Of a stretch of 32,000 bases of DNA, positions 8,740 to 9,909 are shown piece by piece (the first letter of the stretch is position 1; each line of letters starts with the position of its first letter). The notes beneath the pieces are model-generated. The model was given only the letters and a program-made list of their open reading frames with translations. It had not been told where the DNA came from and searched no databases. The stretch lies in the NCBI GenBank assembly GCA_963666485.2, contig CAXXUO010000009.1, positions 131,385 through 163,384 of the forward strand, given 5' to 3'. Position numbers and translations under genes: made by a program. Source of the DNA: Syntrophorhabdaceae bacterium (GTDB taxonomy: Bacteria > Desulfobacterota > Syntrophorhabdia > Syntrophorhabdales > Syntrophorhabdaceae).

Positions 8740-9909
8740 TCAGTGGCATACGCCTCCTGGCAATCCGCCTTCCTTCAATTCCCTGATAGTCGGGTTCGTG
8801 CCGCACAACGGGCATTCGGGGTTCCTCGTGACCTCGATCGTCTTATGGAATGCCTCCAACGCGTTGTAAACATAGAATTTTCCGATCATCGGCTTGCCGA
8901 GGCCTGCCGCGACCTTCAGTGCTTCAACCGCCTGTATCAGGCCTATTTGACCCGGGACGACCCCCAGGACGCCTGCGTCGCTTCAGGTAGGGACGAGGTG
9001 CTCCGGCGGCGGCTCCGGGAACATGCACCGCAAGCACGGCCCGCCCGATGCCGGGTGAAAAACGCCGGCCTGTCCGTCAAACGCGACGGCGCCCCCGAAA
9101 ATGTAGGGCTTGCCTGTAAAAAAACAGGCGTCGTTAAGGAGGAATTTCGTATTGATGCTGTCCGTCCCGTCAATGACGATATCGAACCCTTCGATAATCC
9201 GATATACGTTTCCCGCATCGACCCGCTCATTGAACAGGACGGTCTTTATATGGGGATTGAGCCGCCTTATGCCTTCTTCGGCGGATTCTGTCTTCAACCT
9301 TCCCACGTTTTCCGACAAATGGAGGACCTGGCGGTTAAGGTTCGAGATCTCCACCCGGTCAAAATCGGCTATGCCTATCGTTCCCACCCCGCATGCTGCG
9401 AGATAGAGCAGTGCCGGGCACCCGAGCCCGCCGGCCCCGACGACAAGCATCTTCGCGCGGGAGAGCCTGCGCTGCCCGTCCTCGCCCATCCCCTTGAGGA
9501 TGATATGCCTGCTGTAGCGCTCGTATTCATCCTGGCTGAAAAAACCCGCTTCATTGACAACCGGGAAGCCCCTCTGGGCCCACGCCGATATGCCCCCGGT
9601 CAGCGAGTAAAGGTTCCGGTAGCCCATCCTCTCGAGCTTCGACAAAGCTTTCAGCGACCTCACACCAATGGCGCAGTACACGATAATAGGCCTTGCGCGA
9701 TCGTCAGGAAGTTTGCCTTCGCTCCCTTCGATCTCATCGAGAGGAATATGGACCGCGCCTTTCAGGCAGCCGCGCGTCGTCTCCCATTTCTCACGGACGT
9801 CGATAATGACAGGAGGGTCGGATGATTCGGCAAGGCGCCGGGTCTCTTCGGGAGAAATTTCGCCCCTGTTTGCCGGCCCGCCGCTATTCCTCGAATTGCT
9901 GTCTTTCAT
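8740..9909 (-). CDS. Rhodanese-ThiF/MoeB E1-like adenylyltransferase with in-frame UGA (probable selenocysteine) at codon 309
   Basis: - N-terminal rhodanese domain with active-site loop YCAIGVRS.
- ThiF/MoeB Rossmann domain (VVGAGGLGCPALLYLAACGVG...DFDRVEISNLNRQ).
- The TGA at 8985-8983 replaces the conserved loop Cys.
- The frame stays open for 80 more codons ([23 protein letters not shown]...NPECPLCG...GVCH) to TGA 8742-8740.
- The two CxxC pairs (CLRC and CPLC) straddle the UGA.
- The ORF track stops at 8983. Confidence 0.8.
8951..8968 (-). promoter_or_regulatory. Candidate bacterial SECIS hairpin
   Basis: The mRNA folds as CCUGGG-GGUCGU-CCCGGG: a 6-bp stem (one G-U pair) with a 6-nt GGU-containing loop. 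The stem starts 17 nt after the U of the UGA at 8985. Confidence 0.5.

Follow-up and report, generated by a model that had tools for sequence, protein, structure and literature searches.

The stretch analysed here, 32,000 nucleotides of a Syntrophorhabdaceae bacterium (contig CAXXUO010000009.1; the whole stretch is called the window below), carries on its minus strand a gene for a rhodanese-ThiF/MoeB E1-like enzyme, here called E1. The open reading frame (ORF) of this gene, 9909 to 8983, codes for 308 amino acids and is closed by a TGA at 8985-8983; it starts with ATG at 9909, with a ribosome-binding site (GAGG) 8 nt upstream. The initial annotation had claimed that the frame stays open beyond this TGA, and every one of its sequence statements on this point was confirmed: 80 further codons follow in frame up to a second TGA at 8742-8740, giving 389 codons in total. 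Judging from sequence comparison, it is very likely that 9909 to 8740 is a single gene for a 389-residue selenoprotein E1 with an N-terminal rhodanese domain, in which a hairpin at 8968-8951 directs the insertion of selenocysteine (Sec) at position 309. The features of the gene are as follows.

8740-9909, minus strand: full rhodanese-ThiF/MoeB gene, made up of 308 codons, the UGA of the predicted Sec309, 80 codons and the probable true stop TGA 8742-8740
9574-9852, minus strand: N-terminal rhodanese domain (PF00581, residues 20-112, E 1e-17), with the active-site loop C79-AIGV-R84 and the Cys79 codon at 9675-9673
8809-9516, minus strand: ThiF/MoeB adenylation domain (residues 132-367), with GAGGLG, DFDxVxxSNLNRQ and the Zn site C292/C295 plus C366/C369
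8983-8985, minus strand: UGA codon 309, almost certainly read as Sec, on the crossover loop and aligned with ThiF Cys184, MoeB Cys187 and the catalytic Cys of Uba4
8951-8968, minus strand: hairpin resembling a bacterial selenocysteine insertion sequence (bSECIS), with the 5' arm at 8968-8962, the loop GUCG at 8961-8958 and the 3' arm at 8957-8951

With Cys placed at codon 309, the read-through product (C-terminus ...GGVCH) matches the Pfam family ThiF (PF00899) at residues 132-367, over profile positions 1-237 of 238 and with an E-value of 3e-77. This match crosses codon 309, so a single domain spans the UGA and we are dealing with one gene and not two; moreover, no ATG, GTG or TTG from which a separate tail protein could restart was found near TGA 8985-8983. 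The tail was correctly recognised in the initial annotation as the C-terminal half of a ThiF/MoeB adenylyltransferase. The motifs GAGGLG, DFDRVEISNLNRQ, C292/C295 and C366/C369 all align to E. coli MoeB (1jw9), so that the protein has the Gly-rich loop, the DxD...NRQ motif and the four-Cys Zn site of a full-length adenylyltransferase. Similarly, the pairing of CPLC (C366/C369) with CLRC (C292/C295) in the Zn site, proposed earlier from the sequence, is upheld: each of the two motifs aligns with a CxxC pair in E. coli MoeB and in ThiF. CPLC lies beyond the UGA, so a 308-residue product would have only half of the Zn site; it would also miss the C-terminal third of the fold. In the rhodanese domain, the Pfam match is accompanied by the Cys-X4-Arg loop, and YCA[IV]G[VMIK]RS is present in all close homologues.

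Alignment to solved structures, with residues counted along the chains 1jw9 and 1zud, places codon 309 opposite Cys187 of E. coli MoeB and Cys184 of ThiF, as had been suggested for the conserved loop Cys of ThiF. It also falls on the residue of Chaetomium Uba4 that is Lys in the C202K structures 6z6s and 6yuc. Among the loci fetched for comparison, the codon is TGA in 16 (the window, L001, L081-L084, L161-L168, L009 and L013) and TGC or TGT in 59 other homologous gene copies, the pattern of a Sec/Cys pair. Different samples, assembled independently (ENA, JGI and Logan), gave the loci L001, L081-L084 and L161-L168, and the TGA is seen repeatedly, in at least four lineages. This rhodanese-ThiF architecture also has Sec forms in a metagenome-assembled genome (MAG) of Planctomycetales (L009, 9672-9950 and 9953-11120), with a ThiS-family gene directly upstream, and in a MAG of Actinomycetota (L013, 2949-4150), so the UGA/Cys switch at this residue recurs across phyla.

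The public protein collection stores E1 only as its 308-residue product (P0001). This entry and P0006-P0016, which are 67-82% identical to the window protein, are the 12 closest protein entries, and all of them terminate in ...PPEH[LI]VPT or ...PPGHLVPT; full-length homologues of the Cys form read P[TS]C[SD][DE]AGVLG at this site. For the 64 codons past the TGA, compared between the window and nine relatives, the ratio of nonsynonymous to synonymous substitution rates (dN/dS) is 0.04-0.08 at a synonymous divergence of 0.4-0.7, hence the tail is translated and under strong purifying selection. A rough neighbour-joining tree has Sec and Cys forms interleaved: the Sec clade of the window has the Cys form L169 as its sister, and the Sec forms L084 and L009 group with the Cys forms L004 (Syntrophorhabdus) and L008, respectively, which indicates that Sec and Cys were exchanged several times. 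The Cys-containing orthologues that the initial annotation had asked for exist in the same synteny (P0004, from L169), and true orthologous pairs are provided by the Sec loci L161 and L163 and the Cys loci L169 and L171, which share the same operon. From these comparisons we infer that the in-frame UGA 309 of E1 almost certainly encodes Sec. Reassignment of UGA in a recoded genome was considered and rejected, because TGA ends 12 of the 26 genes in the window and is thus an ordinary stop codon here.

The hairpin downstream of the UGA had been described as lying at the spacing of a bacterial SECIS, and this holds. It has 7 bp, including two G.U pairs, with an energy of -10.4 kcal/mol, and its apical loop starts 21 nt after the UGA. 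The distance of 17 nt given earlier holds when counted from the U of the UGA; from the A of that codon to the stem, the gap is 14 nt. The hairpin satisfies the published bSECIS model, which demands a loop of 3-9 nt, a stem of 4-16 bp, a G in the first two loop positions, a spacing of 16-37 nt and a minimum free energy of at most -7.5 kcal/mol (PMC13188914). This model was passed by 13/13 distinct Sec-form sequences versus 9/57 distinct Cys-form sequences, and all 13 Sec forms have 19-21 nt between the UGA and the start of the apical loop. When all codon positions of ten window genes were taken as background, 4.3% passed, and 1.4% did so at -10.4 kcal/mol or better. The median z against synonymous-codon resampling was -1.8 for the Sec forms and -0.03 for the Cys forms. 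It is the comparative evidence (the 16 TGA versus 59 TGC/TGT copies, the dN/dS of the tail and the 13/13 versus 9/57 bSECIS passes) that lifts the hairpin beyond chance, and we take the hairpin as supporting evidence, not as proof.

A SECIS-like hairpin is also seen in a Cys form. P0004, which has TGC at the site (L169 8919-8984, L170 1054-1119), keeps the hairpin of its Sec relative L164 with the same AUAG apical loop, which is GAAUAGUC under the G-in-loop model. This hairpin could be left over from a recent Sec-to-Cys switch; alternatively, it may have been there beforehand, as a structure that eases a Cys-to-Sec switch.

The gene order around E1 is Rrf2 regulator, metY, metX, metW, E1, orf145, thiE, thiS, thiG and thiH, followed by genes for an AAA_28 protein, an HGD-D/double-cubane-like protein and PmbA/TldD. 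The neighbouring genes, together with two genes further away that bear on Sec decoding, are listed here.

11713-13032, minus strand: metY, O-acetylhomoserine sulfhydrylase, frame-disrupted here
10530-11696, minus strand: metX, upstream of E1
9914-10552, minus strand: metW, directly upstream, its stop 4 nt from the E1 start
8260-8697, minus strand: orf145, directly downstream of E1, an undescribed conserved protein of 145 amino acids ending in ...PRFMMLSGG
7596-8189, minus strand: thiE, part of the thiamine phosphate/thiazole synthesis set at 5579-8189
7399-7647, minus strand: thiS, sulfur carrier ending in GG and presumed substrate of E1, with the real start probably at MKITVNG (7599)
6621-7415, minus strand: thiG, downstream of E1 in the same direction
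5579-6628, minus strand: thiH, downstream of E1 in the same direction
17806-18942, plus strand: hgcA, mercury methylation (NF040863, 448 bits against a cut-off of 275)
18955-19242, plus strand: hgcB, ending in CC, a Cys form

The same order is found in the Sec loci L161 and L163 and in the Cys loci L169 and L171, so that thiE-thiS-thiG-thiH lies downstream of E1 in all four as well as in the window; some syntenic loci have an extra gene for a class-V aminotransferase (cysteine desulfurase-like) just upstream of E1. The thi genes are apparently transcribed with the met genes, downstream of the same-strand gene for the Rrf2-family regulator (13112-13558). Despite the complete thiE-thiS-thiG-thiH set, no TPP riboswitch or other Rfam family reached the gathering score in the window (1-32000), including the regions upstream of thiE (8190-8260) and metY (13033-13111). 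Compared with its orthologues, metY has three 1-nt insertions within about 180 nt, near 12545, 12463 and 12366, which put the stretch with the pyridoxal phosphate-lysine motif (SATKF) out of frame and full of stops, the frame being restored afterwards. Either the assembly is at fault (one insertion lies in a run of T) or the gene is decaying or compensated. Further genes related to sulfur metabolism surround the operon, namely those for a HydE-like radical-SAM protein (13691-14752), NifU, NifS, a CysE-like protein, MnmA and a CysK-like PALP enzyme.

The conserved met-thi synteny suggests that E1 activates ThiS, with the persulfide carried by its own rhodanese domain, and the working model that we consider most likely, by analogy with characterised enzymes, is a self-contained machine for ThiS thiocarboxylation. 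By homology and operon context, the adenylation domain would adenylate the C-terminal Gly-Gly of ThiS. A persulfide on Cys79 of the rhodanese domain, supplied by a desulfurase of the NifS/IscS type, would then attack the acyl-adenylate to give an acyl-disulfide, as in ThiI/ThiF and Uba4. Sec309 on the crossover loop may either form a covalent acyl intermediate or resolve the acyl-disulfide as an acyl selenosulfide, and ThiS-COSH would be freed for thiazole synthesis by ThiG/ThiH. Selenium would be expected to speed the Sec309 step and to ease reduction of the adduct.

The protein directly downstream of E1, orf145, belongs to a family without a match in Pfam or NCBIfam. It is present in 8/8 syntenic loci examined, for example in L161 (11207-11641), L163 (11146-11628), L169 (9257-9700) and L171 (6001-6438). 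The end ...PRFM[ML]LSGG is shared by 6/6 aligned locus-derived copies and 12/12 full-length homologues found by a word-index search; in the family the end follows the pattern ...PRFMxL[SAG]GG, and a Gly-Gly end was seen in 17/17 members inspected. In this clade the N-terminus is Cys-rich (CPFTxxxCxECGVYRGRHRH). A profile search of 1.84 billion representatives returned about 80 clusters at 50% identity, 57 of them at E < 1e-10, and the family ranges from a 73-residue stand-alone protein (with forms of 73-96 amino acids) to forms of 238 residues. The AlphaFold model of orf145 is confident only at residues 70-142 (pLDDT, the per-residue confidence score of the model, 82-90); its Foldseek matches are weak (best E 4.7e-3) and nearly all beta-grasp (PB1, SUMO, LC3, UBL). 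Comparison with ThiS by hhalign gave no profile similarity, and a profile search of the PDB found nothing.

A protein ending in GG and resembling the beta-grasp fold, encoded beside an E1, suggests a second carrier, so orf145 is possibly a second carrier substrate of E1 and, from its model, a candidate for a new ubiquitin-like or sulfur-carrier protein. MetY of Wolinella uses the thiocarboxylate of a carrier protein, a precedent that makes a link to the met genes conceivable. We regard this as a lead, not a finding. A wider proposal, in which the Sec-containing E1 is a two-carrier hub for ThiS and orf145, in which the thiocarboxylate of orf145 (or a seleno-analogue) feeds homocysteine synthesis by MetY as in the Wolinella HcyS system, and in which the Sec substitution shows that chemistry at the crossover-loop residue limits the rate of prokaryotic E1-like enzymes, is speculative and in our estimate unlikely. 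One distant Gly-Gly member, P0135 (L173 1223-1684), adjoins not an E1 gene but an operon for a molybdenum hydroxylase of the xanthine-dehydrogenase/CO-dehydrogenase type and a TOBE protein, with about 960 nt upstream of it free of called genes; for other distant relatives the contigs are too short to give a context.

Several observations weigh against the reading of E1 as a ThiS-activating selenoprotein. The window hairpin is the weakest of its clade and alone is not significant (z = -0.9 against dinucleotide shuffles and -0.9 against synonymous-codon resampling). The peptide VLGVVPGQ encodes near-complementary arms and so favours such a hairpin; of synonymous recodings of the window peptide, 31% pass the bSECIS model and 8% do so at -10.4 kcal/mol or better. 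The hairpin is retained in L169, the nearest Cys orthologue, and no compensatory pair changes were found in the stem, only one-sided ones (GC to GU, UA to UG), in a covariation count whose shuffle control was uninformative. For these reasons the hairpin is a weaker signature than the initial annotation had implied. Rfam gave nothing relevant, either across the whole window at the gathering threshold or in an E-value scan of 8700-9100; Rfam is not known to hold a general bacterial SECIS model, so its silence means little. The genes selA, selB, selC (tRNA-Sec) and selD were found neither in the 32-kb window nor in any fetched locus, the rest of the genome being unsearched, and no second selenoprotein that could serve as a proxy for Sec decoding was found in the window, where HgcA and HgcB were checked. 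On the functional side, E1 scores 233 bits against TIGR02356 (adenyl_thiF), below the cut-off of 275, and 418.8 bits over residues 16-377 against NF006444 (PRK08762), below the equivalog cut-off of 449. With both cut-offs missed, E1 would be filed as an equivalog of neither, and its role is assigned from context. Cys187 of E. coli MoeB is reportedly dispensable (Leimkuhler et al. 2001), so not every enzyme of this fold needs the residue for catalysis. Finally, the insertions in metY point to local sequence errors or decay.

The best surviving alternative grants that E1 is a selenoprotein and gives it a main client other than ThiS: it would be a MoeB/MoeZ-type activator of MoaD/CysO-like carriers, or of orf145 feeding MetY, with Sec309 in a redox or protective role. 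The best NCBIfam match is to the "MoeB" model NF006444 and the literature family bears the name MoeB; the gene stands between met and thi genes and is followed by the conserved GG-ended protein; the Wolinella MetY precedent applies here too; and Cys202 of Uba4 also guards that enzyme against self-conjugation (PMC7527816). However, in every syntenic locus E1 is followed by thiS-thiG-thiH-thiE in the same orientation, neither moaD nor moaE was seen nearby, and orf145 has no sequence relation to ThiS or MoaD, its fold assignment being weak. We consider this alternative improbable, and it overlaps with the ThiS-activating selenoprotein that we prefer, as one E1 can serve several carriers.

Less probable still, and in our view very unlikely, is read-through without selenium, with a near-cognate tRNA (for Cys or Trp) or leaky termination behind it, or a gene that yields only the 308-residue product and keeps its tail for some other purpose. 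Such a reading draws on the search of the window and the fetched loci, where no Sec machinery was found, on the lack of another selenoprotein gene in the window, and on a hairpin that alone is not significant and is favoured by the peptide. It does not explain why the position of the UGA is precisely that of a Cys codon (TGC or TGT) in 59 other homologous copies, nor why the bSECIS model is passed by 13/13 Sec forms but by 9/57 Cys forms; moreover, long retention of the TGA across lineages together with a constrained tail needs efficient, site-specific decoding. The lineage also belongs to a Sec-rich phylum. The homologues are named Syntrophorhabdaceae or Deltaproteobacteria, in the phylum Thermodesulfobacteriota, which has been described as among the most selenoprotein-rich (PMC13188914), and a Sec-containing SAO locus has been reported in Syntrophorhabdus aromaticivorans; both lend indirect support to Sec decoding in this lineage. 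ARAGORN found no tRNA-Sec in the window and 14 loci. Its 95-nt "tRNA-Ala (agc)" at 17534-17628 on the minus strand, which lies inside the cysE-like ORF 16862-17788 and has no Rfam support, is most likely a false positive and was rejected as a tRNA-Sec. According to bioRxiv 10.1101/2022.07.06.499078, most HgcA proteins have an N-terminal extension with the Sec motif PCUGP; the HgcA of the window lacks this extension, with TAA and TAG stops just upstream of its ATG.

That the TGA is an assembly error or a nonsense mutation, leaving a truncated gene or pseudogene with the open tail as a remnant, has a negligible probability: metY, with its three 1-nt insertions in a stretch of about 180 nt, shows that errors or decay occur in the window and the databases store a 308-aa product (P0001), but the identical TGA is present in 15 other loci from independent assemblies, including two other phyla, the tail has a dN/dS of 0.04-0.08 at near-saturated synonymous divergence, and a truncated protein would be without half of its Zn site and the C-terminal third of its fold, so that the comparative data effectively refute it.

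For annotation, the Sec reading means that E1 and at least 11 close relatives are stored as truncated proteins of about 305 residues, the true product having 389 residues and a complete Zn site. The present analysis adds a Syntrophorhabdaceae-like clade whose Sec forms stand in a met-thi operon, places Sec explicitly at the positions of ThiF C184 and Uba4 C202, supplies true orthologues that differ in Sec and Cys, and recognises about a dozen database entries as truncated. No new principle is involved, as MoeB-type selenoproteins have been on lists since 2005. The role of the crossover-loop Cys is unsettled in prokaryotic E1-like enzymes: ThiF uses it for an acyl-disulfide, Uba4 for a thioester. 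Its repeated natural replacement by Sec, in enzymes with their own rhodanese domain, argues that this residue does chemistry that matters. The orthologues P0016 (Sec) and P0004 (Cys), about 70% identical, are suited to a direct kinetic comparison. For the physiology of syntrophic anaerobes, the predicted selenoprotein would tie selenium supply to the synthesis of thiamine and perhaps of methionine.

Several known systems can be compared with E1. In E. coli ThiF (PDB 1zud/1zfn), we find the same adenylation fold, the Zn site of two CxxC pairs, Cys184 at the position of codon 309 and linkage to thiS-thiG-thiH; the differences are that ThiF has Cys where E1 is predicted to have Sec, and that the rhodanese domain is separate, in ThiI, whereas it is fused here. 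It is through Cys184, a crossover-loop residue, that ThiF is joined to ThiS in the acyl-disulfide (PMC12596934). Uba4/MOCS3 (PDB 6yub, 6z6s) likewise combines E1 adenylation and rhodanese domains in one chain, and its adenylation domain aligns with an E-value of 4e-57. In Uba4 of C. thermophilum, Cys202 forms a thioester with Urm1 and a rhodanese persulfide completes thiocarboxylation (PMC7527816). In contrast to E1, the rhodanese domain of Uba4/MOCS3 is C-terminal and not N-terminal, the carrier is Urm1 for tRNA thiolation and not ThiS, and the loop residue is Cys and not Sec.

The rhodanese fusion, which the initial annotation had singled out, proved not to be unusual. NF006444 (PRK08762), a 387-position model named "MoeB", covers the whole architecture and matches residues 16-377 of E1, including the rhodanese domain, and most of the 120 homologues listed have the two domains. 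In MoeZ (NF005902), the rhodanese domain is C-terminal, and E1 scores 350 against a cut-off of 647.

The remark in the initial annotation that a MoeB-type family is listed in selenoproteome surveys proved accurate. As a predicted selenoprotein family, "Molybdopterin biosynthesis MoeB" goes back to the Sargasso Sea survey, which had 11 sequences (Zhang, Fomenko & Gladyshev 2005, PMC1088965), and was carried on in the Global Ocean Sampling (GOS) survey of 2008 (PMC2398784) and in reviews (PMC9312934, PMC13188914; example MBT7809913.1); these four publications contain no experimental test or characterisation of the family. Like E1, the published family has the ThiF/MoeB fold (COG0476/PF00899), an in-frame UGA where many homologues have Cys, and a SECIS-like hairpin downstream. 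The region with this crossover loop is presumably covered by the old MoeZ_MoeB domain pfam05237. It is under this domain that the GOS table places the family (PMC2398784). The Sec of the published family is likely to be at the same residue as codon 309, and in the MoeB-like Sec forms of other phyla found here (L009 and L013) Sec is at the equivalent residue. The published members were recovered from metagenomes of the marine surface and interpreted as molybdopterin enzymes, whereas the E1 described here belongs to a Syntrophorhabdaceae-like anaerobe, has an N-terminal rhodanese domain and stands in a met-thi operon beside thiS. Taken together, E1 is a well-supported addition to the known MoeB-type selenoproteins, in an architecture that is also known.

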